In this document: one piece after another, positions 5,420-31,051 of the stretch
How positions within the stretch are numbered: the stretch's first letter is position 1
Layout of the letters: each line of letters opens with the position of its first letter
Assembly: GCA_041665325.1 (NCBI GenBank)
Contig: JBAYJB010000001.1
Span: forward strand, 61,824 to 125,823
Direction: 5' to 3'
DNA length: 64,000 nucleotides
DNA from: Minisyncoccota bacterium
GTDB lineage: Bacteria; Patescibacteriota; Minisyncoccia; Phycocordibacterales; PALSA-1337
Notes under the pieces: generated by a model
What the model saw: the letters and a program-made list of their open reading frames with translations, nothing else
Told to the model about the DNA's origin: nothing
Database searches by the model: none
Program-made: the position numbers and the translations under genes

Positions 5420-5532
5420 TGGTGAGAATGGAGAAGTTGTTGAGGAGCACGGATATTTTCCTGCTGGAAAATTCCTCGTGCTCGCGCCAGTCGCGCTCGC
5501 AAGTCTCCTCAACAATTTCTCCATTCTCACCA
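5420..5532. repeat. Variable-stem/conserved-core palindromic element, copy 1 (28-bp arm + 56-bp core + 29-bp arm)
   Basis: The core CACGGATATTTTCCTGCTGGAAAATTCCTCGTGCTCGCGCCAGTCGCGCTCGCAAG is shared with 25742..25854 and 30941..31051. The arms TGGTGAGAATGGAGAAGTTGTTGAGGAG and CTCCTCAACAATTTCTCCATTCTCACCA are reverse complements except for one G/T position. Confidence 0.8.
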
Positions 5533-5558
5533 TTCTGCTTCCATGATAGACTTTTGCT

Positions 5559-6176
5559 ATGACTCACATCATCGTAGGGCTCGGTAATCCTGGAGAAGAA
5601 TACGAAACCACTCGGCACAATGTCGGGCGCATCGTCCTCGACTACATCCGTAAGCAGTTGGGTGATGAAGACTTCGTCTTCGACAAGAAGCTCAACGCTC
5701 TGGTAGCCGAAGGTAAGGCGGGGAAGGAGAAGATGGTTCTGGTTGCGCCGGAAACATTCATGAATAATTCCGGCAAGGCCGTCGGTCAGCTCATCAAGAA
5801 CAAGAAGGCCATGCCTGCCGGCAGGCAGGCCGCCGAGCGTCTCGTAGTCATATACGACGACTTCCAGCTGCCGATCGGCCGCATGAAGATCTCTTACAAC
5901 AAGAGCTCCGGTGGACACAATGGACTCGAGTCGATCATCAAGGCAGTCAAGACCGAAGCCTTCCCGCGTATCCGTATCGGTACAGCTCCGGCTAACTCGA
6001 AGGGCGATGCCAAGATACCGCACGGCGATGACAAGATCGAAAAGTTCATCTTGGGCAAATTCAAACCAGACGAGATCAAGGAGATAAAGAAAATAGCCAA
6101 GCTGGCTAGCGAAGCTGTAGAGATGATCGTCACAGAAGGCCGGGAGAAGGCGATGAGCGTATTCAACGGGAAGTAG
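5559..6176 (+). CDS. pth: Peptidyl-tRNA hydrolase
   Basis: MTHIIVGLGNPGEEYETTRHNVG is the Pth signature. Confidence 0.9.
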   Translation: MTHIIVGLGNPGEEYETTRHNVGRIVLDYIRKQLGDEDFVFDKKLNALVAEGKAGKEKMVLVAPETFMNNSGKAVGQLIKNKKAMPAGRQAAERLVVIYDDFQLPIGRMKISYNKSSGGHNGLESIIKAVKTEAFPRIRIGTAPANSKGDAKIPHGDDKIEKFILGKFKPDEIKEIKKIAKLASEAVEMIVTEGREKAMSVFNGK

Positions 6177-6199
6177 CAGGGAAGGCAAAAATCAGCAAT

Positions 6200-6231
6200 A
6201 AAAAAACGGGGGTCCCACAAGCGGACCCCCG
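6200..6231 (-). terminator. Intrinsic terminator (hairpin CGGGGGTCC..GGACCCCCG followed by T7 on the minus strand)
   Basis: The A7 tract on the plus strand corresponds to a U-tract on the minus strand. It lies about 290 nt downstream of the rpsA stop. Confidence 0.55.
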
Positions 6232-6522
6232 TAACCACTATACGGAACAACCAAACAGAAGATGATATAGAAGAACTTGAGAGGGGGACACCGGAGGCAG
6301 GATTTCGCGTCTCTGCCTCCGGGTCATGGCCAGCGGAGAAAAGGTCTCCCGCGGCGCTTCACCCTGTGCTCGCCGACGCGACGGAGTCGTGTCGTGATGG
6401 GCCCGGTGTCGTGAACACGGGCGGGTTGGTAGACCCCTGTCGAGCGGCTAGCTACGGACAATATACACCCTGACTCTAAAATAGTCAAGTCCTTGCCGCG
6501 CCTGTACCAGGCTGTATATCGG
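6232..6522 (-). ncRNA. GC-rich highly structured region between the rpsA stop and the distal terminator; candidate ncRNA or long structured 3'UTR
   Basis: Multiple hairpins (CCGGAGGCAG..CTGCCTCCGG; GCCCGGTGTCG..CACGGGC). The listed ORFs here (6324..6653) are low-complexity. I could find no match to RNase P, SRP or tmRNA motifs. Confidence 0.2.
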
Positions 6523-7779
6523 CTATTTCTCGCCGGTGTAGGATAGAGCCATCTTCTGGTCCTTGGGGTCAAAAAGGGTGATCTTGAAGGGATAGGTCTT
6601 GCCGAGCTCGAGAGACTTACGGAGCTTCTCCTCGGAGCCGAATTCCGAGACATGGACCAGGCCGGCTACGCCTTCCTCGACTGAGGCGAGCGCACCGTGC
6701 TTGTTGAACTTGATGATCACGCCGGTGACGGACATATCTTTCCTGTACTTGGAAGCGGCTTCGAGCCACGGGTTCGGCTTGAGCTGTTTGATGGAGAGGG
6801 AGATCTTGCCGTCCTTGATCTCGATGATCTTGGTGCGGATCTTTAGGCCCGTCTTCACGAAGTTGTGAGGATTATCCACGAGGCCCCAATCGATCTCGGA
6901 GATATGGACGAGGCCTTCGAGCCCCTCCTCGAGCTTGACGAAGACGCCGAAGTCCACGACGCCGGTGACTTGACCATCGACCTCATCGCCGATCTCGTAT
7001 TTGCTGACGATCTGCTCCTTTTCTTTGTGCTCGGAGCCCTTCTCGGAGAAGATGAGCTTGCCTTCCTTGGGGTCGGCCGTGATGATCTGGAGCGCCAGAC
7101 GGGTGCCGACGAGCTTTTTGAGCTCTTCGAGGATCTTGTCCTTGTCGCCGTCAGAAACGCGCGGATAATGCTCGGCCTTGAGCTGGGATGCCGGCAAGAA
7201 ACCGACGATGCCCTGCCATTCGACGAGCAAGCCGCCCTTGTTGGCTTCCTTGACCGGCAGATCGAGTGTGCGCTTCTCGCGGATAGCGGCTTCGGCCTCA
7301 TTCCAGATGAGGGCCTGGCGTGCTTCCTTGAGGGAAAGTTCGAAGTAGCCCTCCTTGTGAGTGTCGTCGACGATCTTGGCGGCTACGGTGTCGCCGATAT
7401 TGATCTTCTTGATGACATCGCGGGCGATGATGTATTCGCGGCCGTAGATGATGCCGGTGCCGAACGGTGCGAGGTCGATATAGACGGAAGCCTTGTCGAG
7501 AGCGATGACCGGGCCTTCGACCAAGTCGCCGATGGCCGGCGGATTCTTCATGGCTAGGATGAGAGGAGCCATGGGGCTGGCCTTCTGGGCGTCGGTAAAT
7601 TCCGGCTCGTCCTTCTTGACGGCCGGTTTGCTAGGGTCTCTTGGTTCTTTGATAACAGTCTTCTTGGCGTCTTCTTTGGCTTGTTCTGGCTTGATGGTAG
7701 CTTCCGAGGTTATCTTGCTTGGCGCGGCTTGCTCGGCCTCTTTGTGGCCGGTGAGGGTCTCTTTGAGTTTTTTGAACAT
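6523..7779 (-). CDS. rpsA: 30S ribosomal protein S1 (four S1 domains)
   Basis: 418 aa with repeated S1-domain patterns (G.V.G.V..I...G.FV.L..G..GL.H.SE). Confidence 0.9.
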   Translation of the reverse strand: MFKKLKETLTGHKEAEQAAPSKITSEATIKPEQAKEDAKKTVIKEPRDPSKPAVKKDEPEFTDAQKASPMAPLILAMKNPPAIGDLVEGPVIALDKASVYIDLAPFGTGIIYGREYIIARDVIKKINIGDTVAAKIVDDTHKEGYFELSLKEARQALIWNEAEAAIREKRTLDLPVKEANKGGLLVEWQGIVGFLPASQLKAEHYPRVSDGDKDKILEELKKLVGTRLALQIITADPKEGKLIFSEKGSEHKEKEQIVSKYEIGDEVDGQVTGVVDFGVFVKLEEGLEGLVHISEIDWGLVDNPHNFVKTGLKIRTKIIEIKDGKISLSIKQLKPNPWLEAASKYRKDMSVTGVIIKFNKHGALASVEEGVAGLVHVSEFGSEEKLRKSLELGKTYPFKITLFDPKDQKMALSYTGEK

Positions 7780-7942
7780 AATTTGTTCCGCGCGCCGGCC
7801 TCTGGGTTATGATAAAGAGGGCGGGATGACGCGGACTGGTTAAATAAGGAACTGGGAGACTATAGCGTATTATTGGCAGATTGTCTATTGCTGGGTTCCA
7901 GTAACCGGTTATCGGCGGCTATTACTCCCGTCAACTTCTCTG

Positions 7943-7965
7943 AAGTGACCGGAAAGTGGTCACTT
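7943..7965. promoter_or_regulatory. Perfect 8-bp inverted repeat AAGTGACC-N7-GGTCACTT in the divergent rpsA/MBL intergenic region, possibly an operator
   Basis: Palindrome read directly from the sequence. Confidence 0.2.
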
Positions 7966-8000
7966 TGAGGAAGGAGCAAGAAGGGTATCTATCACTGGGC

Positions 8001-8067
8001 CGTACTACTAGACCATACTTTTCATGTTTTGACTTAGAAATTTTTGAGCACCGGAGACATGCCACCT
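8001..8067 (+). repeat. Conserved intergenic motif, copy A (GACCATACTTTTCATGTTTTGACTTAGAAATTTTTGAGCACCGGAGACATGCCACC)
   Basis: Near-identical blocks occur at 9104..9160 and 49241..49314, with a partial copy at 17824..17850. Confidence 0.6.
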
Positions 8068-8158
8068 ACGCAAAAAATCAATAATAATCAAATCACCCCC
8101 CACCCCTTATTTGATTTATTCATTGAAACAGTCACGGTTCTTTGCTATGCTCGACTCA

Positions 8159-9276: not shown

Positions 9277-11742
9277 ATGCCCAAGAAATCCGAGGAAAAA
9301 GCCCCTGAAAAAAAGCCGGTTCATACCGGCATTGTCGCGCGCTCGATCACGACCGAGATGCGCGAGTCCTTCCTCGACTATGCCATGTCGGTCATCACCG
9401 ACCGTGCGCTTCCAGACGTCCGTGACGGCCTCAAGCCGGTGCACCGCCGCATCCTCTACGCCATGCACCAGAATGGCCTCAACTATTCCGCCAAGTTCCG
9501 CAAGTCAGCCGTACCAGTGTCAGAGACCATGGGTAACTACCACCCTCATGGCGACGCCGCCATCTACGAGTCGCTGGTCAAGATGGCCCAGAATTTCACT
9601 ATGCGCTATCCGCTCATCCACGGCCAGGGCAACTTCGGCACGGTAGACGGTGATCCGGCTGCCGCCATGCGTTATACCGAAGCCAAGATGTCCCGTCTGG
9701 CCGCCGAGCTCCTGCGCGATATCGACAAGGACACCGTCAATCTTCGTCCCAACTACGATGGCACCAAGAAGGAGCCCGAAGTCCTGCCGACCGCCGTCCC
9801 GAATCTACTCTTGAATGGCACGCTCGGCATCGCCGTGGGTATGGCGACCAATGTCGCTCCGCATAACCTCCGCGAAGTCCTCGACGCTACTACCCATCTC
9901 ATCGACAATAAGGACGCGACCACCGAGGATATTCTCCAGTTCATCAAAGGCCCTGATTTCCCGCTCGGCGCCGTCGTCTACGGGGAGAAGGACATCCACC
10001 ATGCCTATACCACGGGTCGTGGCGGCATGACGGTACGCGGCGAAGCCGAGATCACCGAGGATAAGAAGGGTCAATATCAGATCATCATCACTTCGATCCC
10101 ATTCCGCGTCAACAAGAGCGAGCTCATCATGAAGATCGCCGACCTGGTGCGCGAGAAGGTCGTCGAGGGCGTACGTGCCCTGCGTGATGAGTCTGACAAG
10201 GACATGCGCATCGTGATCGACCTCAAGCAAGGTTCGTATCCCGAGAAGGTCCTCAACCTCCTCTACAAGCACACCCAGCTCGAGGAGACTTTCCATATGA
10301 ATACTGTGGCGCTCGTCCACGGTGTGCCGCAGACTCTGTCTTTGAAGTCGATCTTGCAAGAATTTGTGACGCACCGCATCGAGGTCATCCGCCGTCGCAC
10401 CCAGTTCGACCTCAATGCCGCAGAAGCCCGCGAGCACATCTTGCTCGGCCTCAAGAAAGCTCTCGACCATATCGACGAGATCATCAAGCTCATCCGCGCT
10501 TCCAATGACGTAGCCGATGCCAAAGCTGGCCTCATGAAGAAGTTCAAGTTCAGCGACCTCCAAGCCCAGGCCATCCTCGACATGCGCCTGCAGAAGCTGG
10601 CCGGCCTCGAGCGCAAGAAGGTCCTCGACGAGCTCAAGGAGGTCCAGGCCCTCATCGAAGACCTCAAGAGCATCCTGGGTAGCGACAAGCGCGTCCGTAC
10701 TATCATCAAGATTGAGCTTGCCGAGATCAGGGACAAGTATGGCGACGAGCGCCGCACCCGCATCGTCAAGCACTCCGTCAAGGAGTTCAACCCCGAGGAC
10801 CTCATCGCCGACGAAGAGTCCGTGCTGGTCCTCACCAAGGGCGGCTATATCAAGCGCACTGATCCGTCAGAGTACCGCAAGCAGAAGCGCGGCGGCGTCG
10901 GCGTCGTAGACCTCGACACCAAGGAAGAGGACTTCATCTCCCATATCATCTTCGCCACTACGCACAACGACCTTCTGTTCTTCACCGACAAAGGCAAGGC
11001 CTATCAGATCAAGATGTACGAGATCCCGGAGGGCAAGCGCGCCACCAAGGGCAAGTCGATCATGAATTTCCTGTCTCTTTCCGATGGCGAGCGCGTGACT
11101 TCGATCCTGCCGATGCCCAAGAACAAGAAGGAGGCCGAGGGTCTCTCTCTTATGATGGTCACCAAGGGTGGCACCGGCAAGAAGTCCGCCGCCAAGCATT
11201 TCAAGGATGTGCGCCGGAGCGGCCTCATCGCTATCACCCTCGACGCCGGTGATGAGCTCATCTCCGTGTCGTTCGTGACCAAGTCCGACGAGGTGGTCAT
11301 CGCTACCCGCGAAGGGCAGTCCATCCACTTCAAGGAGTCCGATGTCCGCGAGATGGGTAGGAATGCCGCCGGCGTGCGCGTCATGAAGCTCGAGAAGGAT
11401 AGTGTCATCTCGGCCGATGTCGTCTCCAAGGAAGCCAAGAATCCTTGCCTCTTCGTGATGGGCGCCAACGGCTATGGCAAGAAGACCGAACTTTCCGAAT
11501 ACAAAGTCCAGAACCGCGGCGGCTCCGGCATCCTCACTATGAATGTCACGCCCAAGACTGGTCCGCTCATGGCAGCCAAGGTGGTCACCGACGACGAGGA
11601 AGAGGTCGTGGCGATGTCCAAAAAGTCTCAAGTCATCCGCGTCGATCTCAAGGAGATCCCGACCTTGTCGCGCGCCACCCAGGGCGTGCGCGTCATGAAG
11701 CTCCGTGAAGGGGATTCGTTGGCGAGTCTGATCTGCTTGTAA
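9277..11742 (+). CDS. gyrA: DNA gyrase subunit A
   Basis: 821 aa with the active-site region [10 protein letters not shown] and a C-terminal beta-pinwheel repeat region. Confidence 0.95.
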
Positions 11743-11785
11743 TTTTCCTCATAAAATTGTCCCCATGTTGGGCTCAACAGCCATA

Positions 11786-11800
11786 TATTCATGGTAAAAT
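11786..11800 (+). promoter_or_regulatory. Extended -10 promoter TGgTAAAAT, 6 nt upstream of the ATG (leaderless arrangement)
   Basis: TGGTAAAAT at 11792..11800; the methyltransferase ATG is at 11807. Confidence 0.35.
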
Positions 11801-16188: not shown

Positions 16189-16222
16189 GCCTGTAGATAT
16201 TTACTGGGCAAAATTTTGGAGC

Positions 16223-16262
16223 AAAAAAACGGGCCGCTGGAGTAAACTCCTGCGGCCCGTGT
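16223..16262. terminator. Intrinsic terminator hairpin CGGGCCGC..GCGGCCCG with flanking A7/T-rich tracts, between the convergent pilin array and the SPFH operon
   Basis: A7 tract upstream (U7 on the minus strand) and a T-rich stretch downstream. Confidence 0.55.
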
Positions 16263-16278
16263 GGTTTGTCCCCTTGCC

Positions 16279-18747: not shown

Positions 18748-20865
18748 TTAAGGACCGCGCCCGTTACTGCGTCGCCCACCGTTGTGAGAGGCGGGACCAT
18801 TGTTCCGGCCCGGAGCGGACCGGGATGGGCCGCCGCGGGGCTGGATGGTCGGCTGGCGAGGCGGCGAGTGTCTCGGGGTGTAGCCCCGATAACTGTTGCC
18901 GCCGTGCCGACTGTGCTGTGGGTATGAATACCCACGATGATGGCCAGGGCTGTAGCGGTAACCGTAACCGCTATTACCCCAACCATACTGCACGCCGACC
19001 GAACCGACGATCATCGGTGAGCTGGAGTAATATCCTCCAGTGTAACCGCCGTAGTAGGCCGCCGGTTGAGGTGCCTCATAGGCTTCCTCATAGACGACCT
19101 CTTGGATGACCTCCTCCGTCACTTGGGGCTCGCGGTATTGAAGCGCGACCTTGGGTTCGGGCGGGGGAGGAGTGACCTTCTGCTCGATGTTCACCGTGAC
19201 CTCCACTTTCTGCGGCTGCTGGTGATGCGGCCGGGGTTCTGGATCACACACCGGCGCGGGCGGCTTCGACTCGACGGCCTTTTGGAGGGGCAGTGAATCG
19301 TTGCCATAGACAGGCGGCGTTGCACCGGGAGGGAGCGGCGGCGGTTGCAAATGCTTCCGCTGCAATTCCTCCTGATCGATGCGCAGCCGGTTGAGGCTGT
19401 CCATGATCGCGGCTTGACCGGCCTTGAGGGCCGGATCATCGGAGGAGCTCCTCACTGTCTGCGCGGACTGGGTAGCCCGGGCGAACAGGAAGAACGCCGA
19501 CAACGCCACGACGGCCACGATGGCGAGGATGACCAGCCAGGCCGTGACATTGCTGTCGCGGCTCGACGGGGTCTTCGCCGGCTGGCTCGACGGGACTTCT
19601 GGAGAGGGCTTCGGTCCCGGCTTGTTGGCCAGCTCCGCCACCTTATTCTCGATCTCCTTGAGGCCGCCGATCATGGTCTCACCCTGTTTCTTGAGGCCGT
19701 CGACGCTGGTCTGCACATTGCCCACCCCCGTGATGACCTTGTCGGCCTTCCCGGAGAGGAGTTCGGTGCCACCAGCTACGGCTTCGCCGAGCTGGTCCAC
19801 GGACTCCTGGGTCGCCAGGATGGCGATCCGGGAGAGCACGAGATCCATCCTGCTCGGCGGCCTTGGGGCCGGGGGCGGGGTGGCGGGCTCGGTGGACGGT
19901 GCCGACGGCGGTGGCGTCGCTTTGGACGGCTGGGCCGCGGGCGGTTGCTCGACTTCGTCCCGCGGATCCGCGTGTTGGCGGACCCGGGGTTCCTGGGGCT
20001 TGATCTCGGCGACGTAATGGTCCGTCAGCACGAGCTGGTGCTCGACCGTCTCGCTGCGCTTGCCGTCGTTGCCGAGGGCAGTCGCTTTGATGGTGATCGT
20101 GCCGGTCTTGAGCAGGCCGGCCACCGGATTGAGTTTGCGCAGATGGCCGGTGATATACCGGGCACTGCCAACCTCGTGTTTATCGAGCGGGAACACCTGG
20201 TTCCCATCCTTGTCGACGCCGACGACCTCGAGGAATTTCGTGGTCACGGGATCGACGCGGATGGACAGGTTGAGGCCCCGGAGTTGGATGTCCGGCTTCT
20301 CGATCGTGATGTCCGGGCCTGAAGCCCGATCGCCACGACCCGCGTCCATGATCTCTCCGATGGTGGCCAGAGGAGCCGCCAGGGGAGCCGACGGTGTCTC
20401 CACGACCGGCACCGCCGGAACGACTTCCGCAACGGGTGCGGCCGCCGCTGTTGGGGCGACCACCGCCACAGGTGTGGCTTCGGTCGCCGGAGACAGTTCG
20501 CGCAGAACCTTGGCTTCGTCCGCGCTAAGCGCGAACTCGGCCCGGGCCGGCAGGCTGTCGCGGTATTTCTCGCCGTTGAAGGCGATGACCTCGACAACGT
20601 ATCTGCCCTCGAAGGCCTCGGCGAACGAACCCTTGAGGTTCATGAGATAGACGGCCGGGATATCCAGGCTGCCATCCTTGACCGGGAACGAGTTCTTTTC
20701 GGCTGGCCAGATCGAGACGTTAGCGATGATGTTCCGGACATTGATCCGGAATCCCCCACAATCAGGGGAGGACAAGTGGATCTTGAAGACCACTTCTCCG
20801 GTTGTTTCCCGAGAGACCATGATGGTCGGCGTCGGGAGCGCTTTCTTTTGTGATGACTTTGGCAT
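18748..20865 (-). CDS. Large hypothetical single-pass membrane protein with Pro-rich and Gly/Tyr/Arg-rich low-complexity regions
   Basis: 705 aa with a TM segment (WLVILAIVAVVALSAFFLF), PPxP-rich segments and a C-terminal YGGYTGGYY..GYGYRYSPGHHRGYSY..RGG tail. Confidence 0.55.
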   Translation of the reverse strand: MPKSSQKKALPTPTIMVSRETTGEVVFKIHLSSPDCGGFRINVRNIIANVSIWPAEKNSFPVKDGSLDIPAVYLMNLKGSFAEAFEGRYVVEVIAFNGEKYRDSLPARAEFALSADEAKVLRELSPATEATPVAVVAPTAAAAPVAEVVPAVPVVETPSAPLAAPLATIGEIMDAGRGDRASGPDITIEKPDIQLRGLNLSIRVDPVTTKFLEVVGVDKDGNQVFPLDKHEVGSARYITGHLRKLNPVAGLLKTGTITIKATALGNDGKRSETVEHQLVLTDHYVAEIKPQEPRVRQHADPRDEVEQPPAAQPSKATPPPSAPSTEPATPPPAPRPPSRMDLVLSRIAILATQESVDQLGEAVAGGTELLSGKADKVITGVGNVQTSVDGLKKQGETMIGGLKEIENKVAELANKPGPKPSPEVPSSQPAKTPSSRDSNVTAWLVILAIVAVVALSAFFLFARATQSAQTVRSSSDDPALKAGQAAIMDSLNRLRIDQEELQRKHLQPPPLPPGATPPVYGNDSLPLQKAVESKPPAPVCDPEPRPHHQQPQKVEVTVNIEQKVTPPPPEPKVALQYREPQVTEEVIQEVVYEEAYEAPQPAAYYGGYTGGYYSSSPMIVGSVGVQYGWGNSGYGYRYSPGHHRGYSYPQHSRHGGNSYRGYTPRHSPPRQPTIQPRGGPSRSAPGRNNGPASHNGGRRSNGRGP

Positions 20866-21074
20866 GTTGAAACCCTTTTGGGGCCTCCGGTTGTAAGCCT
20901 CTCGAACTAAGTCGATCAGCTTTGTTGATGTTTCCCCTGCGTAGCAGGGGGTTTATTGGGAGATTATGAGATTGTCAGAGACCCCGTTGCGCCATAAATA
21001 GCACAACTTTTGTATGGGCAGATTATATCATTCCATGGGCAAAAGTCAATAGTGGCCTCTATAGTTATTGCTTT

Positions 21075-21157
21075 GTGCCGGGGAGAGGACTCGAACCTCC
21101 AAGGATTGCTCCGCGTGGTCCTAAGCCACGTGCGTCTACCAATTTCGCCACCCCGGC
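21075..21157 (-). tRNA. tRNA-Leu (anticodon TAG)
   Basis: Cloverleaf read by eye: acceptor GCCGGGG/CCCCGGC, anticodon loop CTTAGGA, long variable arm, T-loop TTCGAGT. No encoded CCA. Confidence 0.8.
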
Positions 21158-21187
21158 GTTGCTTTCCGATTATAACACTATCTTCTG

Positions 21188-21260
21188 TGCGCCCAGTAGG
21201 GATCGAACCTACGACCTTATCCTTAAGAGGGATCTGCTCTACCAGCTGAGCTATGGGCGC
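21188..21260 (-). tRNA. tRNA-Lys (anticodon CTT)
   Basis: Acceptor GCGCCCA/TGGGCGC, D-arm GCTC-AGCTGGTA-GAGC, anticodon loop CTCTTAA, T-arm GTAGG-TTCGATC-CCTAC. Confidence 0.8.
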
Positions 21261-21392
21261 GAGCGAGAAGCAGAGGAAAAGCTAGCTTTTCCTCTGACTT
21301 CGAGCGAAGCGCCCACGCCGAGCGTAGCGAGGCTTGGGCGCACGGGAAGTTGTCAAACCACGTAAAACAAGCACTCCGCTAATGTAACAGAT

Positions 21393-21428
21393 TTAATCAT
21401 TCCTGTCATTCCCATTCTTGCACCGGAT
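21393..21428 (+). promoter_or_regulatory. Putative promoter for rpmF (TTGCAC-N16-TAATAC with a TGTG upstream element)
   Basis: Read directly from the sequence. Confidence 0.25.
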
Positions 21429-21452
21429 GCGAATGTGTGTAATACTACCACC

Positions 21453-21677
21453 ATGGTAAATCGAATGCGTGCCACGCGGTCTCACCGCGACAATAGACGC
21501 TCACATCACGCTCTAGATGCGGCGCGTGTTTCGAAATGCCAGAATTGCGGCGTCGCCCACAAGAGCCATGCGGTGTGCATGAGCTGTGGATGGTACAATG
21601 GCCGCAAGGTCCTCGACCTTACCATCAAGGCTTCCGCCAAGGCCAAGAAGGCCGCGGCTGCCGCGAAGAAGGTTTAG
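21453..21677 (+). CDS. rpmF: 50S ribosomal protein L32 (with Lys/Ala-rich C-terminal tail)
   Basis: MVNRMRATRSHRDNRRSHHALDAARVSKCQNCGVAHKSHAVCMSCGWYNGRKVL matches the L32 zinc-ribbon pattern. Confidence 0.8.
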   Translation: MVNRMRATRSHRDNRRSHHALDAARVSKCQNCGVAHKSHAVCMSCGWYNGRKVLDLTIKASAKAKKAAAAAKKV

Positions 21678-21792
21678 TAGTGTAGCTCCGTTGTCATCCT
21701 AGGATCGTGCATCAGGCATCGTGACTCGTCGTTATCCCTGATCTACGATTCTCACAATCTAACATCGTCAATCAATAGCTCTTTCAAACACC

Positions 21793-22695
21793 ATGGCCAA
21801 CCGCCACCTCTCCAGATCCATCGTCCTCCAATCGCTCTTCGAGTGGGATTTTTGCGGTGGCAAACTCAAGACCAAAGACATCATCAGCCGGAATAGCAAA
21901 GAATTCGCGCCCGGCCTGACGGACCTCGCCTTCGTCGAATCTCTCATCGACGGCATCATCGCCAAGAAGCCGGAGATCGACGCCATCATCGAGAAGGCCG
22001 CTCCCGATTGGCCGATAGACAAGATCTCGCCTGTAGACAGGAATGTGCTCCGCCTCGGCCTCTACGAACTGCTCTTTGCCGATCGCTCCGAGGTCCCGGC
22101 CAAGGTCGCCATCAACGAAGCCATCGAGCTAGCCAAGACTTTTGGCGGCGAGACTTCTGGCCGCTTCGTCAACGGCGTCCTCGGCGCTGTCTACAAAGAG
22201 CTCGGCGAGCCGGGCAAGGATGCCGTCTCATCCAAGAAGAAGAAAGCTCCCGAAGTGCCTTATGAGCAGATGATCGTCCAGCATCTCGGCGGGGCAGTCG
22301 TCTATGGCCGGAGCGGTCAGGAGATCTATCTGGCTTTCGTCCATGACATCTTCGGCCATTGGACGCTCTCCAAGGGTAAGATCCTCGAGGGAGTCGATCC
22401 CTCCGACGGCACTATCGCCAAGGTCAAGGAAGAGATCGGACTCACGGTCAAGATCATCGCCGACCTCGGCACCAACGAATACATCGCCAACGACCCCGAC
22501 CTCGGCAAGATCAGGAAGCAGGTACACTACTATCTCGCGGAAGCGCCGTTCGGCGACCTGACTCTGGCCAAGAAGCCTGGCCTCGACGACGCCAAATGGT
22601 TCAAGCTCGCCGACATTCTTGAGCTCAATTTCTATAACGACATCCTGCCGATCGTCACCAAGGCCGTGACGATACTCTCCGAACAGGAAAAGTAA
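21793..22695 (+). CDS. nusB: Transcription antitermination factor NusB fused to a C-terminal degenerate Nudix-fold domain
   Basis: The N-terminal 137 aa are NusB-like (LRLGLYELLF.. VNGVLGAV). The C-terminal 160 aa align to the Nudix box as KGKILEGVDPSDGTIAKVKEEIGL versus GGKIEMGETPEQAVVRELQEEVGI, with the RE pair replaced by AK. Confidence 0.7.
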   Translation: MANRHLSRSIVLQSLFEWDFCGGKLKTKDIISRNSKEFAPGLTDLAFVESLIDGIIAKKPEIDAIIEKAAPDWPIDKISPVDRNVLRLGLYELLFADRSEVPAKVAINEAIELAKTFGGETSGRFVNGVLGAVYKELGEPGKDAVSSKKKKAPEVPYEQMIVQHLGGAVVYGRSGQEIYLAFVHDIFGHWTLSKGKILEGVDPSDGTIAKVKEEIGLTVKIIADLGTNEYIANDPDLGKIRKQVHYYLAEAPFGDLTLAKKPGLDDAKWFKLADILELNFYNDILPIVTKAVTILSEQEK

Positions 22696-22703
22696 CCGCT
22701 CCC

Positions 22704-23405
22704 ATGACTACCATCAACTTCGAATCACTAGCTGAACATATCGGCGTGTCGATGGGCGACATCTCGCTCTTGCGTACGGCCTGCACGCACCGCTCGTACT
22801 TGAATGAGAATCGAGCCGCCGGGCTCGAGCACAATGAGCGCCTGGAATTCCTGGGCGATGCCGTCCTCGAGCTGGTGGTGACTAGCTATCTTTTCCGGAA
22901 ATACCCGACCAAGGCCGAAGGGACGCTGACGGCCTATCGTTCGGTTCTGGTCAACACAGTCAGTCTCATCAAGGTGGCCGAACGCATCGGCTTGAGAGAC
23001 TTCATCCTGCTCTCCAAGGGCGAATCCAAGGACAGCGGACGCGGCCGATCCGTGATCATCGCTAACGCGGTCGAGGCCATCATCGGCGCCATCTATCTCG
23101 ACCAGGGCTACAACGGTGCGGCCAACTTCATCGCCAATCACATCCTCGAGGTCATCGATATCGACAAGATCGTCGAGAGCAAATCATGGATCGATGCCAA
23201 GAGCCGCTTCCAGGAGGCGGCGCAGGACAAGGCCGGTCTGACACCGACCTACAAGACCATGAAGGAGGACGGGCCCGACCATGACAAGCATTTCACTCTG
23301 GGTGTGTTCCTCGGTAGCGTGCAAGTCGCTTCCGGCAGCGGACCGTCCAAGCAGGAGGCCGAGCAGAAGGCGGCCGAGAAGGCGCTTGAGGTCAAGGGGT
23401 GGTGA
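22704..23405 (+). CDS. rnc: Ribonuclease III
   Basis: ERLEFLGDAVLELVVTSYLF signature and a C-terminal dsRBD. Confidence 0.9.
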   Translation: MTTINFESLAEHIGVSMGDISLLRTACTHRSYLNENRAAGLEHNERLEFLGDAVLELVVTSYLFRKYPTKAEGTLTAYRSVLVNTVSLIKVAERIGLRDFILLSKGESKDSGRGRSVIIANAVEAIIGAIYLDQGYNGAANFIANHILEVIDIDKIVESKSWIDAKSRFQEAAQDKAGLTPTYKTMKEDGPDHDKHFTLGVFLGSVQVASGSGPSKQEAEQKAAEKALEVKGW

Positions 23406-23468
23406 TGTTGGGGTATTTTTGCGCTACAATTACCTGTACATCCCGAATACTGACTGCATACCTTTCTC

Positions 23469-25733
23469 ATGTATCTGAAATCCCTGGAACTATCCGGCTT
23501 CAAATCATTCGCCAAGAAGGCGACTCTTTCTTTTACCACGCCTATCACCGGCATCGTCGGGCCGAACGGTTCCGGTAAGTCCAATGTGGCAGAGGCCTTC
23601 CGCTTCGTCTTGGGCGAGCAGTCCATCAAGTCCCTGCGCGGCAAGCGCGGCGAAGACATGATCTGGAACGGCGGCGGGGAAGGTCCGACCAGCGCTGGTC
23701 GGTCCAATCGTGCCAACGTCAAACTCGTCTTCGATAATTCACGCAAGCTCTTCGAGACTATCGACTTCAGCGAAGTAGCCGTCGAACGCATCGTGCATCG
23801 CGACAACAGCAACGAATACCTCTTGAACGGCAGTCCGGTTCGTCTCAAGGACATCGTCGAACTCCTGGCCATCGCTCACATCGGCGCCACCGGTCACCAC
23901 ATCATCTCTCAAGGCGAGGCCGACCGCATCCTCTCCGCTTCGATCCGCGAACGCCGCGAGATGATCGAGGACGCCCTCGGCCTCAAGATCTACCAGTGGA
24001 AGAAGCTCGAGAGCATCCGCAAGCTCGAGAAGACCGAAGAGAACATGAAGCAGGTGGAGTCCCTGCGCCGCGAGATCGCCCCACATATCCGCTTCCTCAA
24101 GAAGCAGGTCGAGAAGATCGAGAAAGCCGAAGCCATGCGCAAAGACCTGATCACGATGTACCAGGAATATCTGGCGGCCGAGGATCATTATGTTCATACG
24201 GAGAAGGAGCGCCTGAATACAGAATTAGCCGACCCAAGGAAAGAGCTCGGCGAATTGGACAAGGAGTTGGAGCGGGCCAAGGATATTCTGACGGCTTCCA
24301 AGAATAAGGACCAGAAGAGCGATGAGGTCATCGCTCTCGAGGGTAAACTCGTTGCGATCCGGAGCGAGCGGGATGCCATCACACGCGAACTGGGACGGCT
24401 CGAGGGCGAGATCGGCGCCAACGAGCGTGCTATCGATAAAGAGAAAGAAAAACAGAAGCGCGACGAATTCAAGACCGTCTATCTCAAGGACCTAGAAGAT
24501 GTGGTTAGCACCATTGAATCATACAAGTCGATCGAGGATATCAAGAAGCTTTTCAATGAAATTGTAAACACTCTCCGCAGTTTTATCATTAAGCATCGTG
24601 GTTTGAATGATTCAGCGCTGATCGCTGATGCAACCAAGGAGATCGAATCTCTGCAAAAGGAAAAGAATAAACATGACGAAAAGCTCAGAGGAGTTGATCA
24701 ATCGGAATCCGAGTTTATCCACAAGTATGACGAGCTCAAAAAGACCATAGAGAAGGAGAAAGACACCAACCGCGATGCGGAAAAGGATGTCTTCCGCATC
24801 ATCGCGCGCCAGAATGAGATCCGCGGCACCATCTCACAGTTGACCACCGCGCTCAATGTGGTCATCCACGACGCCGGAATCCTCGAGCGAGACATGGGCG
24901 AGGCCGGCATATTGGCGGGCAGGGAGGCCATCAACTATACGCCGGTCCCAGCTTTCACCAAGACTGCTCCGCGCGAGACCCAAGAAGAGCGTCGCAGGCA
25001 GATCGAGAAGGTCAAAGTCCGCCTCGAAGATGCCGGCGCCGGTGGCGGCGCTGAAGTGCTGAAGGAGTACAGAGAGACCGAGGAGCGTGACGCATTCTTG
25101 GGAAGGGAACTCCTCGATCTTGAGAAGGCCAGCAAAGAGCTCTCGGTCCTGATCGCCGAGCTCGATATGCGCATCGATGTGGAATTCAAGACCGGCATCC
25201 TCAAGATCAACACGGAATTCAACAAATATTTCAACTTGATGTTCGGCGGCGGCCGAGCGGAGCTCAATGTGGTCAAGGAACCGAAGCGCCGCCGCAAGAG
25301 CGACGCGGATGACTTGAGCGAAGCGCTTGCCGGCGACGCATTAGAAAATCCTGATATCGAAGCAGAGGAGGAAGGCCCGGAAGGCTTGGAGGTCAATGTC
25401 AGTTTGCCGCGCAAGAAAGTTAAAGGCCTGATGATGCTCTCCGGCGGCGAGCGCGCCCTGACCTCGATCGCGCTCCTTTTCGCTATTTCTCAAGTTAATC
25501 CTCCGCCGTTCGTCATCCTCGACGAGACCGACGCCGCCCTCGACGAGGCTAATTCCCGCAAATACGGCGATATGATCGAAAATTTGTCGAAACATTCGCA
25601 ATTGATCCTGATCACCCACAACCGCGAGACCATGTCACGGGCCGGTGTGCTCTATGGCGTGACGATGGGTTCCGATGGCGCCTCCAAGTTGCTCTCACTA
25701 GCCTTTGAAGATGCCGTGAAAGTGGCGAAATGA
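23469..25733 (+). CDS. smc: SMC-family chromosome segregation ATPase (short, 754 aa)
   Basis: N-terminus LKSLELSGFKSF..GIVGPNGSGKSNVAEAFRFVLGEQSIKSLRG; C-terminus LSGGERALTSIALLFA..FVILDETDAALD. The coiled-coil region is shortened. Confidence 0.8.
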   Translation: MYLKSLELSGFKSFAKKATLSFTTPITGIVGPNGSGKSNVAEAFRFVLGEQSIKSLRGKRGEDMIWNGGGEGPTSAGRSNRANVKLVFDNSRKLFETIDFSEVAVERIVHRDNSNEYLLNGSPVRLKDIVELLAIAHIGATGHHIISQGEADRILSASIRERREMIEDALGLKIYQWKKLESIRKLEKTEENMKQVESLRREIAPHIRFLKKQVEKIEKAEAMRKDLITMYQEYLAAEDHYVHTEKERLNTELADPRKELGELDKELERAKDILTASKNKDQKSDEVIALEGKLVAIRSERDAITRELGRLEGEIGANERAIDKEKEKQKRDEFKTVYLKDLEDVVSTIESYKSIEDIKKLFNEIVNTLRSFIIKHRGLNDSALIADATKEIESLQKEKNKHDEKLRGVDQSESEFIHKYDELKKTIEKEKDTNRDAEKDVFRIIARQNEIRGTISQLTTALNVVIHDAGILERDMGEAGILAGREAINYTPVPAFTKTAPRETQEERRRQIEKVKVRLEDAGAGGGAEVLKEYRETEERDAFLGRELLDLEKASKELSVLIAELDMRIDVEFKTGILKINTEFNKYFNLMFGGGRAELNVVKEPKRRRKSDADDLSEALAGDALENPDIEAEEEGPEGLEVNVSLPRKKVKGLMMLSGGERALTSIALLFAISQVNPPPFVILDETDAALDEANSRKYGDMIENLSKHSQLILITHNRETMSRAGVLYGVTMGSDGASKLLSLAFEDAVKVAK

Positions 25734-25741
25734 TCATTATT

Positions 25742-25854
25742 GGAGCAATGTGACATGACAATCTCGAGACACGGATATTTTCCTGCTGGAAAATTCCTCG
25801 TGCTCGCGCCAGTCGCGCTCGCAAGTTCTCGAGATTGTCATGTCACATTGCTCC
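25742..25854. repeat. Variable-stem/conserved-core palindromic element, copy 2 (28-bp perfect arms + 57-bp core)
   Basis: The arms GGAGCAATGTGACATGACAATCTCGAGA and TCTCGAGATTGTCATGTCACATTGCTCC are perfect reverse complements. The core is identical to copy 1. Confidence 0.85.
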
Positions 25855-25892
25855 CTCATTGCATTCTGCTTGGTTCAAGGTAAACTACAGGC

Positions 25893-26731: not shown

Positions 26732-29431
26732 ATGCCTCCGATCAGTAAGCTCACAACCAAGGCCCGGGAAGCCCTGAAGAGGGCCCATGAATTGGCCATC
26801 GAGCGCGGCCAGAATCACGTCAATCCAGTGCATCTTCTGTGCGCCCTCATCCTCCAAGAAGAGAGCATGGTGGCTTCCATTCTCGACAAGCTCGAGGTGG
26901 ATACCCCGATGCTCACTGACGTAGTCTTGGAGCACATCGAGTCCCCGGAAGGATCGAACGTGCTTTCACCTTCATACCAGATCTATCTCACGCCAGACCT
27001 GGCCCAGATCCTGGATAACTCTCTGCGCGTGGCCGGTACGCTCAAGGACGAATTTATCTCGACCGAACACCTCTTCTTGTCGATCTTCGACATCCCGTGC
27101 ATCGCTCGCGATGTCCTGGTACGCTTCAAGATCGAACGCGACAATGTGACCAAGATCGTCGAGGAGCTCAAGGCCAACCCGCAGACCAAGGACAATGAGC
27201 CCAAGAAGTTCCGCACCCTCTACAAGTATGCGCGTTCGCTCACCAAGCTGGCACGCGAGAACAAGCTCGATCCAGTCATCGGCCGCGACAATGAGATCAT
27301 GCGCATCATCCAGATCCTTTCGCGCCGCACCAAGAACAACCCGATACTGATCGGCGAGGCCGGCGTGGGCAAGACCGCCATCGTCGAGGGTCTAGCTCTG
27401 CGCATGTCGCAAGGGGATATCCCTGAATCTCTCAAGGACAAAGAGCTCGTCTCGCTCGACCTTGGCCAGCTCATCGCCGGCACCAAGTATCGCGGCGAAT
27501 TCGAAGAGCGTCTCAAGAATATCCTCAAGGAGATAGAGCGCGCCGAGGGCAGGATCATCCTATTCGTCGATGAGATCCACACCCTGGTCGGCGCTGGTGC
27601 CTCCGAGGGTTCGATGGACGCTTCGAACATGTTGAAGCCTGCCTTGGCCCGCGGTGAGTTGCGCGCCATTGGTGCCACCACCATCAAGGAATATCAGAAA
27701 TACATCGAGAAAGATCCGGCTCTGACGCGCCGCTTCCAGCCGGTCTTCGTCAACGAGCCATCGATCGAAGATGCCGTTTCCATACTGCGCGGCCTCAAAG
27801 AGAAGTACGAGCTCTATCACGGCGTACGCATCACCGATGATTCCATCATTGCGGCGGTGAACTTGGCCAGCCGCTATATCACCGACCGCTTCTTGCCCGA
27901 CAAGGTCGTCGACTTGATCGATGAGGCCTCTTCGTCCCTGCGTATCTCGCTCGAGAACATGCCGCCCGAGCTCGAGATCACCCGCCGCAAGATCATGCGC
28001 CTTGAGATCGAGCGCGAGGCTCTCAAGAAGGAGAATAGCAAAGAATCCAAGGCTCGCAGTACCAAGATCGAGCGGGAGGTCGCCGATCTGAAGGAGAGCA
28101 CTTCGGAGCTTGAGCTCAAGTGGAAGAATGAGAAGAACACCATCACCGATATCAAGAAGATCAAGAAGGAGCTGGAGGTCCTGCGCATCGAGGCCGACAT
28201 GGCTGAAGCCCGTCCGGACCTAGCCAAGGCCGCGGAACTGCGCTACGGCCGCATTCCAGGCCTGGAGAAGGATCTGGAGACCAGGAATAAGCGCCTCAAG
28301 AAGCTCCAGTCATCCCGCCGCATCCTCAAGGAAGAGATCACCGCCGAGGATATCGCCGGCGTGGTCTCGCGTTGGACAGGCATCCCAGTCTCACGCATGC
28401 TCGAGTCCGAAGCGTCCAAGCTCACTCGCATGGAGGCCGAGCTCAAGCGCCGCATCGTGGGGCAGGACGAGGCCGTCACCAAGATTTCTGACACCGTGCG
28501 CCGTTCGAGGGCCGGCATCGCCGACCAGAACCGGCCGATCGGCTCATTCATCTTCCTCGGACCGACTGGTGTGGGCAAGACCGAGCTTACTAAGGCTCTG
28601 GCCGAGTTCCTCTTCAATGACGAGAAGGCTCTGGTGCGCGTCGACATGTCCGAATTCATGGAGAAGCACTCCGTGTCTAAGCTCATCGGCGCGCCTCCGG
28701 GGTATGTCGGCTATGACGAGGCCGGCGGTCTGACCGAGACTATCCGCCACCGCCCGTATGCGGTCATCCTCTTCGACGAGATCGAGAAGGCCCATCCGGA
28801 AGTCTTCAATGTGCTCCTCCAGGTCCTCGACAACGGCCGCCTGACCGATAGTAAGGGACGTATCGTCAATTTTCGCAACACCATCATCATCATGACCTCC
28901 AATATCGGCGCCCAACACATCGAGCGTATGGAGAAGCTCGGCTTCGCCAAGACCCAAGGCAACCGCGACCGAGAGAACTACGCCGAAGCCAAGGACAAGA
29001 TCATGGCTTCGCTCAAGGATTATTTCCGCCCGGAATTCCTGAATCGCGTCGACGACACAGTGATTTTCGATATCCTCTCGCAGGAAGCCGTCCGCGAGAT
29101 CGTCAAGATCCAGGTGGCCGAGGTGGTCAAGCGCCTCGCCGACAAGCACATCGAGCTTATTCTCTCCTCGCCGGCTCTCGACTATCTGGCCAAGGAGGGC
29201 TACAACCCGCAGTACGGCGCTAGACCGCTCAAGCGTCTGATCCAGTCCAAGATCCTCACGCCGGTGGCCAACCTGCTCATCGGTCAGGAAGTAGCGAAGG
29301 GTGGGGCAGTCCTAGTTGGCGTCAAGGATGTCTTCGGCAAACCGGAGCTCAAGGATTTCACTTTCGAGGTGCGCAAGAAGCATAAGGGCGAGTCGCCGAT
29401 CATCGCTCACGAGGCTGTGGTGCAGAAGTAA
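26732..29431 (+). CDS. clpB: ATP-dependent chaperone ClpB
   Basis: Clp N-domain, two AAA+ modules ([15 protein letters not shown]; [15 protein letters not shown]) and a long coiled-coil M-domain. Confidence 0.9.
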
Positions 29432-29485
29432 TTGCGGAATCACCCGAATCATATTAGAATCAACACGGGTTCGTTCAAAGCACAT

Positions 29486-29568
29486 GCGCCGTTCGGATAG
29501 CGGCTATTCCAGGGGACTGTAAATCCCCGGCCTTTTAGGCATCGCTGGTTCGAGTCCAGCACGGCGCA
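29486..29568 (+). tRNA. tRNA-Tyr (anticodon GTA)
   Basis: Acceptor GCGCCGT/ACGGCGC, anticodon stem-loop GGGGA-CTGTAAA-TCCCC, long variable arm, T-arm GCTGG-TTCGAGT-CCAGC, discriminator A. Confidence 0.75.
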
Positions 29569-29588
29569 CAAATTCTTTCAATCATCTG

Positions 29589-30734
29589 TCAATCCACCAC
29601 TCTCTTTAAGGCTGCCGGGATATGGACGGCGATCTCGTAGGGGATAGTGTCACAGCGCCTGGCCATCGAACGGATGGAGTTGGCGTCGTCTGGCTCGCAG
29701 CTGATGACCGACACTTCCATGCCCACCTTGACGCCGACCACGGTGGTGACGTCGATGGTAGTGATATTCATGCTGATACGGCCAACGATCGGGCAAAACT
29801 CATTTTTGGGCCCGACCTGGATGGCGCCGATGCTCGAGAGGCGGCGGTCGATGCCCTCATAATATCCGACCGGAATAGTGGCAACCAGCATCTTCTTCTC
29901 CACCTTGAATGTCTTGCCGTAGCCGATGGTCTTGCCGGCCTCGAGCTTCTTCACGCCGGTGACGATAGTCTTCATGGCGAGCACGGGCTTGAGGTCGAGC
30001 CTGGCATTGAGGGCTGCGTTGTCGGACAGACCGTAGAGGCCGATGCCGAGGCGGGTGACATTGGCGGTGGTGCTGTCTGCGTACCGGGAGCCGTCGGTGG
30101 CGGCGGCGTGGACATATTTGATTGCAGGGAACACGGCCTTGAATGTCTTGACCGACTTATCCCAGACGCGGAGCTGGTCCTGGGTAAATGATTCGTCGGG
30201 ATTGTCGGCATCGCAGAGGTGCGTGGCTAGCCCGTCGAGCTTGATGCGGGGATTGTTCTGAAGAATATCAATGGCTGTGGGGATCTCTTCCGGCAATATG
30301 CCCTGCCTATGCATCCCTGTGTCGATCTTGATATGGGTATGGACGTCTCGACAGGTCGGAAGCAGGGCCTTGAGGGCGTCCAAACTGGCGATTGTAAAGG
30401 CCATTTCTGGGAGGTGCGACGAAGCTATCGTCTCCGGCCGAGTATAGCCGATGACGAGGAGCGGCGTCCTGATCCCTTTGGCCCGCAAGGCGATGGCCTC
30501 GAAATAAGAATCGACGACGAAGAAGGGGATGTGTCCGGCCTCCCGCAAGATGCCGGCTACCTCGATCAGGCCGTGGCCGTAGGCGTTGCTCTTCAACACT
30601 GGAGCGATCAGCGCGCCGTTCGCGTGCCCGGCGAATTCCCGTAGATTGTGGAGGAGGCGTTCTCGGGAGATGGAAACAGTGATGAGCGGCTCGTAAGGGA
30701 AGCGATGCCGCGAAAGCCAAGTAAACAATCTCAT
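29589..30734 (-). CDS. alr: Alanine racemase
   Basis: PLP-lysine motif AVLKSNAYGHGL; 381 aa fold I/TIM-barrel racemase pattern. Confidence 0.85.
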   Translation of the reverse strand: MRLFTWLSRHRFPYEPLITVSISRERLLHNLREFAGHANGALIAPVLKSNAYGHGLIEVAGILREAGHIPFFVVDSYFEAIALRAKGIRTPLLVIGYTRPETIASSHLPEMAFTIASLDALKALLPTCRDVHTHIKIDTGMHRQGILPEEIPTAIDILQNNPRIKLDGLATHLCDADNPDESFTQDQLRVWDKSVKTFKAVFPAIKYVHAAATDGSRYADSTTANVTRLGIGLYGLSDNAALNARLDLKPVLAMKTIVTGVKKLEAGKTIGYGKTFKVEKKMLVATIPVGYYEGIDRRLSSIGAIQVGPKNEFCPIVGRISMNITTIDVTTVVGVKVGMEVSVISCEPDDANSIRSMARRCDTIPYEIAVHIPAALKRVVD

Positions 30735-30784
30735 GTTTGCATTATGTCTTACAATACGCTATATTACAACCTCAATTCACCCAT

Positions 30785-30940
30785 ATGTCACAAGACCAAC
30801 TGATCCAAATCAAGAATAAAGAGACCGGTGAGACCTACTGGACCCGCAAGAACCGCAAGAAGGTCGAGCGCAAGATCGAACTCAAGAAATACTCGGCCAA
30901 GCTCCGTAAGCACGTGGTCTTCAAGGAGGCTAAGAAATAA
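30785..30940 (+). CDS. rpmG: 50S ribosomal protein L33
   Basis: TGETYWTRKNRKKVERKIELKKYSAKLRKHVVFKEAKK matches L33 (..Y.T.KN......KLELKK.....R.HV.FKE.K). Confidence 0.8.
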   Translation: MSQDQLIQIKNKETGETYWTRKNRKKVERKIELKKYSAKLRKHVVFKEAKK

Positions 30941-31051
30941 GCACCGAGAGAACATGACCTCGAACTGCACGGATATTTCCCTGCTGGGAAATTCCTCGTG
31001 CTCGCGCCAGTCGCGCTCGCAAGGCAGTTCGAAATCATGCTCTCTCGGTGC
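30941..31051. repeat. Variable-stem/conserved-core palindromic element, copy 3 (27-bp arms + 57-bp core)
   Basis: The arms GCACCGAGAGAACATGACCTCGAACTG and CAGTTCGAAATCATGCTCTCTCGGTGC pair with three transition mismatches. The core hairpin carries compensatory changes (ATTTCCC-TGCT-GGGAAAT versus ATTTTCC-TGCT-GGAAAAT in copies 1 and 2). Confidence 0.8.

Follow-up and report, generated by a model that had tools for sequence, protein, structure and literature searches.

Rickettsia palindromic elements (RPEs) are palindromic repeats of ~100-150 bp, which often lie in frame inside housekeeping genes and have no known transposase (PMC10969869). The repeats analyzed here were noticed as three 113-bp copies in a 64,000-nucleotide stretch of DNA from a Minisyncoccota bacterium (GCA_041665325.1, contig JBAYJB010000001.1, positions 61,824 to 125,823), which is referred to below as the window. 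Each copy consists of a near-identical 56-nt core enclosed by copy-specific inverted arms of 28-29 bp, and together they represent a large family that is confined to the Patescibacteria, or candidate phyla radiation (CPR). RPEs are the closest functional analog of this CPR element, compared by description. Both occur in a host-dependent lineage with reduced genomes and occupy intergenic and in-frame genic sites, where RPEs are, and the CPR element presumably is, read through as peptide insertions; like RPEs, the CPR element is often found in frame in housekeeping open reading frames (ORFs) (34 of 187 copies, with hosts confirmed by Pfam). Each RPE family has one conserved peptide, and its conservation therefore extends along the element. 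The CPR element, in contrast, is conserved only in its central ~56 nt; its arms are free, and five reading frames are used. The CPR element also belongs to an unrelated phylum and contains in its core a covarying three-way junction with tandem G·A mismatches.

Bacterial MITEs (miniature transposable elements with inverted repeats), such as Correia/NEMIS, ERIC, BOX and RUP, resemble the CPR element in being small, non-coding, multi-copy, hairpin-forming and polymorphic for presence and absence; they also can be co-transcribed and cause assembly breaks. The CPR element is likewise far below ~300 bp and variably present. However, classical MITEs have conserved terminal inverted repeats, because a transposase binds them, and generate target-site duplications, whereas the termini of the CPR element are variable, with all four Watson-Crick pair types in every column of its outer stem, and no target-site duplication was found beside 23 sharply bounded copies. 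In attC sites, the fold of one DNA strand is recognized, the arms differ and are imperfectly complementary, and unpaired features carry the strand information, all of which the CPR element appears to share. In contrast, attC sites have conserved outer boxes (RYYYAAC/GTTRRRY) around a variable center, the inverse of the CPR element, and flank gene cassettes next to an integrase, whereas the CPR copies are dispersed, occur within ORFs and have no conserved ends; neither R''/R' boxes nor a variable center nor cassette boundaries were found. REP/REPIN-RAYT systems and the palindrome-associated transposable elements (PATEs) derived from IS200/IS605 form hairpins in single-stranded DNA, produce no target duplication and are oriented with respect to the replication strand, and HUH/Y1 systems of this kind are a plausible mechanistic analog for the strand-specific folding and the GC-skew bias described below. 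Nevertheless, REP stems are conserved in sequence and extragenic, and PATE ends are not mutual inverted repeats, whereas the stems of the CPR element vary and 18% of its copies lie within genes. The architecture of the element is the inverse of that of RPEs, MITEs and REPs, in which ends or stems are conserved, and of attC; the defining features of classical MITEs, REPs and attC thus bore out the initial annotation of the window, which had considered the repeat to be unlike all three. Small palindromic mobile repeats are already known, and the combination of a conserved center with free arms is the new part. No description of the family was found in the literature, including by its core sequence and peptide as text.

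The three copies are located at window positions 5420..5532 (copy 1; arms 5420-5447 and 5505-5532, core 5448-5503), 25742..25854 (copy 2; arms 25742-25769 and 25827-25854, core 25770-25825) and 30940..31052 (copy 3; arms 30940-30968 and 31024-31052, core 30968-31023), with covariance model scores of 128, 129 and 121 bits, respectively. We assign all three to the minus strand, which is the folded strand according to the mispair pattern described below. The 56-nt core as first written is the + strand; it matched three times in the window, always on that strand, with 0 matches expected by chance, confirming the three copies that had been reported. The cores of copies 1 and 2 are identical, and that of copy 3 has two mismatches, which are mutually compensating substitutions in the inner hairpin P2 (ATTTTCC/GGAAAAT to ATTTCCC/GGGAAAT), as the initial annotation had observed. 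Its description of the arms as copy-specific but (nearly) complementary also held: complementarity was 96% over 28 nt in copy 1, 100% (28/28) over 28 nt in copy 2 and 90% over 29 nt in copy 3, and these arm pairs are the longest three inverted repeats of the window. The three transition mispairs in the arms of copy 3 are all A·C on the + strand and thus G·U/T on the minus strand. Folding of either strand gives a long stem with two hairpins at its tip (z-scores, -9.6 to -12.6 relative to shuffled sequences), and the minus-strand fold of copy 3 is 10.9 kcal/mol more stable as RNA. The covariance model, run with filters off, found no further copies in the window.

To describe the family, we scanned one genome per species for the exact 21-mer of the second inner hairpin, P3 (GCTCGCGCCAGTCGCGCTCGC). 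At least 113 genome stretches matched, of which about 80 were full elements, and the remainder were chance matches in high-GC genomes. The full elements were found in metagenome-assembled genomes (MAGs) named Saccharibacteria, Nomura-, Taylor- and Giovannonibacteria, Parcubacteria/Paceibacterota, Minisyncoccia, 'Patescibacteria group' or unclassified. A scan of metagenomes with a pattern within P2 only, which left P3 free to vary, yielded at least 120 more stretches. Altogether, a search with a covariance model and core patterns in other genomes, as the initial annotation had proposed, recovered at least about 200 copies of ~95-135 bp from Patescibacteria/CPR genomes and metagenomes, 187 of them non-redundant. 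The covariance model detected extra, more divergent copies at the same loci, up to five in 13 kb (L138; L-numbers such as L090 and L147 are our labels for the public genome or metagenome stretches compared with the window), and the three copies in the 64-kb window imply dozens of copies per megabase. A phylum-wide mobile family, present also within essential genes, is beyond what the window sequence alone could show. The listed true matches were all in CPR MAGs, except for four copies (L040, L048, L080 and L100) from one MAG labeled 'uncultured Gammaproteobacteria bacterium binchicken_co38_723'; either a wrong label or mis-binning of the contigs could account for this exception.

A phage or plasmid vector was rejected, since phage and plasmid records contained no element match and a scan of 2.9 million viral contigs with three patterns gave one chance match only. 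A protein-database search with a 43-amino-acid peptide encoded by the element returned no candidates. Similarly, the element belongs to no known Rfam family: only tRNAs reached the gathering score, and the E-value mode gave generic, spurious long-hairpin matches to miRNA models that were far below threshold. At about 2890-3030 of L012 there is a divergent palindrome with arms GGAAGTTC/GAACTTCC and the inner hairpin GACTCC-TACT-GGAGTC; it was missed by the model, and the superfamily is therefore broader than detected.

The RNAalifold consensus of 67 non-redundant copies is a three-way junction formed by an outer stem, P1, and the hairpins P2 and P3. In copy 2, P2 lies at 25773..25797 on the minus strand (GGA.ATTTTCC-TGCT-GGAAAAT-TCC; equivalents at 5451-5475 in copy 1 and 30971-30995 in copy 3) and P3 at 25801..25823 on the same strand (TGC-TC-GCGC-CAGTC-GCGC-TC-GCA; equivalents at 5479-5501 and 30999-31021). 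P1 was modeled with 25 pairs and varies from 20 to 40 bp across the family. Of the 10 pairs of P2, 9 had changed on both sides among the 67 copies, with 97% of cells paired; P3 was invariant in this alignment except at one pair because the search pattern lay within it. In the 67-copy alignment, 87.2% of cells were paired, compared with 38-51% when the partners were slid, and the covariation score was 0.60, compared with 0.14-0.19; none of 500 shuffles reached the observed values. For both alignments together, the ranges were 87-91% vs 38-53% of cells paired and 0.60-0.66 vs 0.10-0.19 for the score, although the metagenome alignment was fitted to the model, which favors pairing. In the metagenome set, which was anchored on P2 only, the inner helix of P3 covaried at all four of its pairs, with 97.8% of cells paired and with variants such as GCGC/GCGC, GGCT/AGCC, GCTT/AAGC, GCTC/GAGC and GGCC/GGCC, among others, and one P3 base pair swapped from U-A to A-U. 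The variants retained the 2x2 internal loop TC/TC, which is bracketed by covarying helices, and the loop C(A)GTC. In some variant copies a further hairpin is present, either in the stretch that separates P2 from P3 or within P3, and the core is nearly invariant across CPR classes. Pairs of G·U make up a few percent of stem cells and are rare in the arms, a share that we consider low for stems this variable. Thus, the initial proposal of a three-way junction with a long outer stem, in which pairing is conserved while sequence diverges, was supported by covariation in all three helices over about 180 independent copies.

The deviations from perfect pairing bear on which strand folds. The P1 cells of the two alignments contained 108 and 121 A·C mispairs, compared with 62 and 70 of G·T, and 102 and 155 mispairs of C·T/T·C, compared with 40 and 10 of G·A/A·G, respectively. 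Isolated mismatches in ungapped arms were A·C in 68 cases and G·T in 21, and the commonest tandem mismatch was TC opposite TC, with 14 cases vs 0 for GA opposite GA. On the complementary, minus strand, these mispairs become G·T(U) wobbles and tandem G·A in a Y-GA-R context, which are the most stable non-canonical combinations, and the TC/TC loop of P3 becomes GC-GA-GC/GC-GA-GC. When a neutral loop stood in for the core, the minus strand gave the better fold of the arms in 49 copies vs 18 and in 56 vs 19 (sign-test values of 2e-4 and 2e-5, respectively), with similar results for DNA parameters. C-to-T change on the G-rich strand, the usual mutation bias of bacteria, should instead raise G·T on the + strand, which is the reverse of the observation. 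Because the non-canonical positions are tolerated on the minus strand only, the fold is probably preserved on the window minus strand, the complement of the one that the initial annotation wrote out.

Filled and empty sites were used to define the inserted unit. L090, a contig from the MAG of a related Saccharibacterium, is syntenic with the window, with 67-81% identity in the syntenic genes, and contains a copy (6822-6949) directly after a stop codon. At the window counterpart (11741-11787), no more than a 14-nt spacer follows the stop codon. The two sites differ by about 118 nt, which corresponds to arms plus core, and both arms are missing in the window; window copy 1, in turn, is missing from the same spacer in L090. 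In RecG (L089) and TsaD (L147), the residues encoded by the arms and core are extra relative to the canonical motif spacing, which we take to be that of the E. coli sequences. These sites and extra residues show that the arms travel with the core, and the arms are thus neither pre-existing hairpins nor copies of the target. As the window also contains no empty long hairpins, the suggestion that the element inserts into pre-existing hairpin loops was refuted. A TCGCTC-like motif recurs on both sides of the element and is strand-specific in the arm zones. Its reading as a direct repeat left by target duplication was rejected, and we infer that it is a tandem-G·A continuation of the stem.

The distribution of copies is patchy. 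In an all-against-all comparison, flanking ORFs formed clusters of at most 4, and neighboring genes were almost never common between genomes; most positions of the element are therefore lineage-specific, and a conserved neighbor gene or orthologous cis-element was rejected. Near-identical full copies, arms included, were found at different loci in single MAGs (5 in BP5.bin30 and at least 8 in SRP150892_co2_467), and arm sequence was conserved only within such recent bursts. The element breaks short-read assemblies: public contigs end inside copy 2 (L114, equivalent to window 20469-25806) and inside copy 1 (L116, equivalent to window 5478-7068). With respect to a cognate insertion sequence (IS), no recurrent neighboring gene was found among the flanking ORFs compared. 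In BP5.bin30 (L002, L009, L033, L036 and L109), the element lies within a non-coding composite repeat of ~350 nt; no autonomous parent was found there, this larger shared unit being too short for a transposase gene. L002 and L009 have exchanged their outermost, non-complementary arm segments (AATCCTCA/AAGCATCA) but keep the same core orientation, as expected if the core can invert in place by recombination between the arms. At four loci (L207 1699-1947, L138 2314-2560, L152 4723-4957 and L144 1036-1284), copies of different subfamilies are paired in opposite orientation with an overlap of a few bases. One copy may have inserted into or beside the other, or existing copies may be preferred targets. 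At L155 1680-1983, a core-only copy lies in a ~300-nt spacer between tRNA-Thr and tRNA-Tyr in a tRNA cluster.

Most of the 187 non-redundant copies are intergenic, but 34 (about 18%), selected as ORF-spanning, lie inside long ORFs. Pfam domains flank the insert on both sides in DnaE, RecG (two sites), TsaD, UvrD/PcrA, an AddA-like helicase-nuclease, a class-V aminotransferase, PheT, IF-2, Tgt (two sites), MnmA, ComEC, Dus and KsgA. The class-V aminotransferase is IscS/NifS-like, and the same loop of this protein carries copies in opposite orientations. In these genes the host frame is open throughout the element, including its arms; the copies lie in either orientation and in five of the six frames, and they are presumably translated as loop insertions of ~32-40 residues. 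The window variant is open in all six frames, as are about 1-2% of shuffles; an open state of all six frames as a designed property was dropped, since among natural copies it was seen in no more than 12 of 80 and 5 of 117. Host transcription ran along the + strand for 50 copies and the minus strand for 38, which was not significant, and copies within ORFs showed the opposite direction (13:21). Copies between co-directional genes had an orientation bias of 37:17, and many copies start less than 20 nt from a co-oriented stop codon. The GC skew of the flanks was positive on the element + strand in 104 vs 55 cases (p = 2e-4).

Sites shared between relatives indicated how copies behave after insertion. 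In TsaD, one position is occupied by a copy in six metagenome contigs; all six copies are open in frame, and their arms differ yet pair. The arms of four of these six copies are recognizably homologous, and L147 and L151 differ by two double compensatory changes. Two Tgt genes (L012 and L192, 71% amino-acid identity by tblastn) share two insertion sites, at 2850-3090 and 3220-3450 of L012 and at 1040-1260 and 1330-1560 of L192, and a remnant in the L192 gene has lost its 5' arm and half of P2. The divergent palindrome of L012 described above occupies the other shared site. Copies persist long, decay by deletion, and keep their core better than expected for inert DNA.

The patchy, lineage-specific spread of the repeats, their insertion as one unit in any orientation and frame, and their independence from host transcription argue for a mobile DNA element. 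Since the termini are free but paired, the junction is conserved and the non-canonical pairs are strand-specific, what is recognized appears to be the shape of one folded strand together with the junction core. We consider it reasonably probable, although well short of certain, that the repeats are a non-autonomous, structure-defined mobile palindromic DNA element of the MITE or 'palindromic element' kind that is specific to the Patescibacteria. The inserted unit would be the whole ~95-135-bp palindrome, consisting of the conserved ~56-nt center (P2, and P3 with its tandem G·A) and P1, whose sequence would be free provided that the arms pair. The element would move through, or be recognized as, folded single-stranded DNA (the minus strand here), and a trans-acting enzyme would read the junction core and hairpin shape instead of terminal sequences, with a logic analogous to that of HUH/Y1 transposases or integron integrases acting on folded single-stranded DNA. 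The hairpin DNA site for a recombinase or HUH enzyme that the initial annotation had listed would be the most plausible mechanism. Recognition of the folded core would explain the contrast between drifting arms and a core that is conserved throughout the phylum. Arm complementarity may be kept by selection for mobility, and template switching during replication, which 'perfects' quasi-palindromes, may contribute to it as well.

Several observations weigh against a mobile DNA element of this kind. No transposase or recombinase, autonomous parent or excision footprint was found near the copies, and no genome-wide search was made for them; the case for mobility therefore comes from distribution only. 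The folded species may be either DNA or RNA. Gene orientation is a confounder of local GC skew. As a result of the orientation bias, the folding strand coincides with the C-rich strand, which would be the leading-strand template if local skew tracks the direction of replication. This bias is opposite in sign to that reported for IS200/IS605-type single-strand transposons, unless it reflects survivorship, and no HUH gene is linked to the CPR element. In addition, an inert selfish insert should decay, but at the TsaD site P3, which lay outside the search pattern, is 89% identical, compared with 67-69% for the host flanks and 64-68% for the arms, and the Tgt remnant (L192 1379-1499) has kept an almost intact P3 and its 3' arm in frame. 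Such retention of the core points to in-situ constraint, from a function for the host or of the nucleic acid, or to gene conversion among copies. A more far-reaching version of the preferred explanation can be put forward only tentatively: the repeats may constitute a new class of strand-specific, shape-recognized mobile DNA, a three-way junction with sheared tandem G·A that is serviced by a CPR enzyme, and the core may in addition be constrained after insertion and co-opted in CPR chromosome or RNA biology.

The same retention could mean that the repeat is a domesticated host DNA site, the junction core of which, as a cruciform or single-stranded DNA, serves to bind or load a CPR protein of the nucleoid or of replication, repair or recombination, with each locus under selection and the mobile look being secondary. 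Consistent with this idea, P3 has outlasted both the codons of the essential gene around it at the orthologous TsaD site (89% vs 67-69%) and the truncation of the Tgt copy, the arms are still paired at orthologous sites, the core is nearly invariant across CPR classes, and orientation correlates with GC skew, as it does for some chromosome-architecture motifs. We nevertheless regard it as unlikely. Positions are mostly unshared between genomes, with hardly any clustering of neighboring genes, relatives differ in which sites are filled, single MAGs contain bursts of near-identical copies, and the inside of an essential gene is implausible as a designed location; moreover, the 65:35 orientation bias is weak, and gene conversion among dispersed cores could mimic constraint. 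Somewhat less likely again is a functional structured RNA. On transcription, a long double-stranded stem topped by the three-way junction would form, which would bind a protein or serve in cis as a signal for processing by RNase III, for stability or for termination. Strong covariation in all helices would fit an RNA, as would the many copies within 20 nt of a co-oriented stop codon and the 37:17 bias between co-directional genes; RNase III is encoded in the window, and Correia elements provide a precedent for cleavage of a repeat by this enzyme (PMC10969869). However, copy orientation does not follow host transcription, which makes both an intron and a cis-acting RNA specific to one strand unlikely: the overall 50:38 ratio is not significant and is reversed (13:21) within ORFs, and one class-V aminotransferase loop holds both orientations. 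In intergenic copies, the strand with the RNA-friendly mispairs (G·U and tandem G·A) is less often co-transcribed, G·U accounts for only a few percent of stem cells, and a perfect double-stranded RNA of 28-37 bp in dnaE, infB or tsaD mRNA would be harmful, not useful. There is no Rfam match, and in the three window copies the 28-bp stems are followed by TTCTGCTTCC, CTCATTGCAT and ATACTAGCG, not by a U-tract (T run) as in an intrinsic terminator; copies also occur in ORFs and divergent spacers. The dedicated structured non-coding RNA or RNase III substrate that had been suggested as a general function was thus not supported, given both orientations, in-ORF copies in five frames, the rarity of G·U in the arms and mispairs that favor the opposite strand.

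An intron-like sequence, whose ends are joined by the long stem and which is removed from the transcript to leave host proteins unaffected, is highly improbable. Patescibacteria are unusually rich in introns, in a study that deals with group I introns only (PMC13011429), the element occurs within essential genes, and its outer stem juxtaposes its ends. Still, every detected in-gene copy, selected as ORF-spanning, keeps the host frame open, including six diverged TsaD copies and a half-element remnant that is still in frame; both orientations and five frames are used where an intron would have a fixed orientation, most copies are intergenic, and the element resembles neither group I nor group II introns, nor any Rfam ribozyme. 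Least probable of all is that the core alone is mobile and enters pre-existing hairpin loops, or that the arms are an inverted target duplication. Arms that are copy-specific and often perfectly complementary would be expected in this case, but the empty orthologous site in the window lacks both arms, residues encoded by the arms are extra in RecG and TsaD relative to the canonical proteins, and the window has no other long hairpins. Furthermore, the arms of different copies share degenerate motifs and are homologous at one orthologous site, and whole elements, including arms, are repeated within MAGs.

The gene context reported for the window copies was confirmed. Copy 1 lies in the divergent spacer between the signal peptidase S26 (lepB) gene (4751-5365, minus strand) and pth (5559-6176, plus strand). 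Copy 2 starts 8 nt past the stop codon of an SMC-like gene (23469-25733), and copy 3 abuts the rpmG (L33) stop codon (30940), 20 nt before tRNA-Trp (31073); the RNase III gene is located at 22704-23405. The 9-mer ATTCTGCTT occurs 0-10 nt after copies 1 and 2 (window 5531-5540 and 25863-25872), just upstream of the next gene, and may be a coincidence, a motif of the promoter or ribosome-binding-site region, or a piece of a longer ancestral unit. An imperfect palindrome at window 16218-16271, with 26-nt arms that are 77% complementary and a 2-nt loop, gave weak sub-threshold matches to the element model, but it has the look of an ordinary hairpin outside the family. Window positions 36000-42000 have a low GC content (0.41-0.48, compared with about 0.55 elsewhere) and encode a histidine phosphatase, an NYN-domain protein, an M23 peptidase, an MgsA-type AAA+ ATPase and several ORFs without a Pfam match. 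This stretch may be acquired DNA, and no transposase was seen in it.

A large share of bacterial diversity belongs to the CPR/Patescibacteria, in whose tiny genomes very few mobile elements have been recognized, and a phylum-wide repeat is therefore a notable part of their genome dynamics. Its insertion in dnaE, infB, tsaD, recG and tgt is a source of protein-loop insertions, which, when unrecognized, leave unexplained extra segments in annotated proteins. The element inverts the usual logic of transposable elements, having free ends and a conserved center, which implies that an enzyme would recognize a folded junction of one strand. It also provides a clean natural case of long-term compensatory evolution in a 20-40-bp stem at orthologous loci. 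If the core has indeed been co-opted, it would have a function in CPR chromosome or RNA biology, even inside essential genes.

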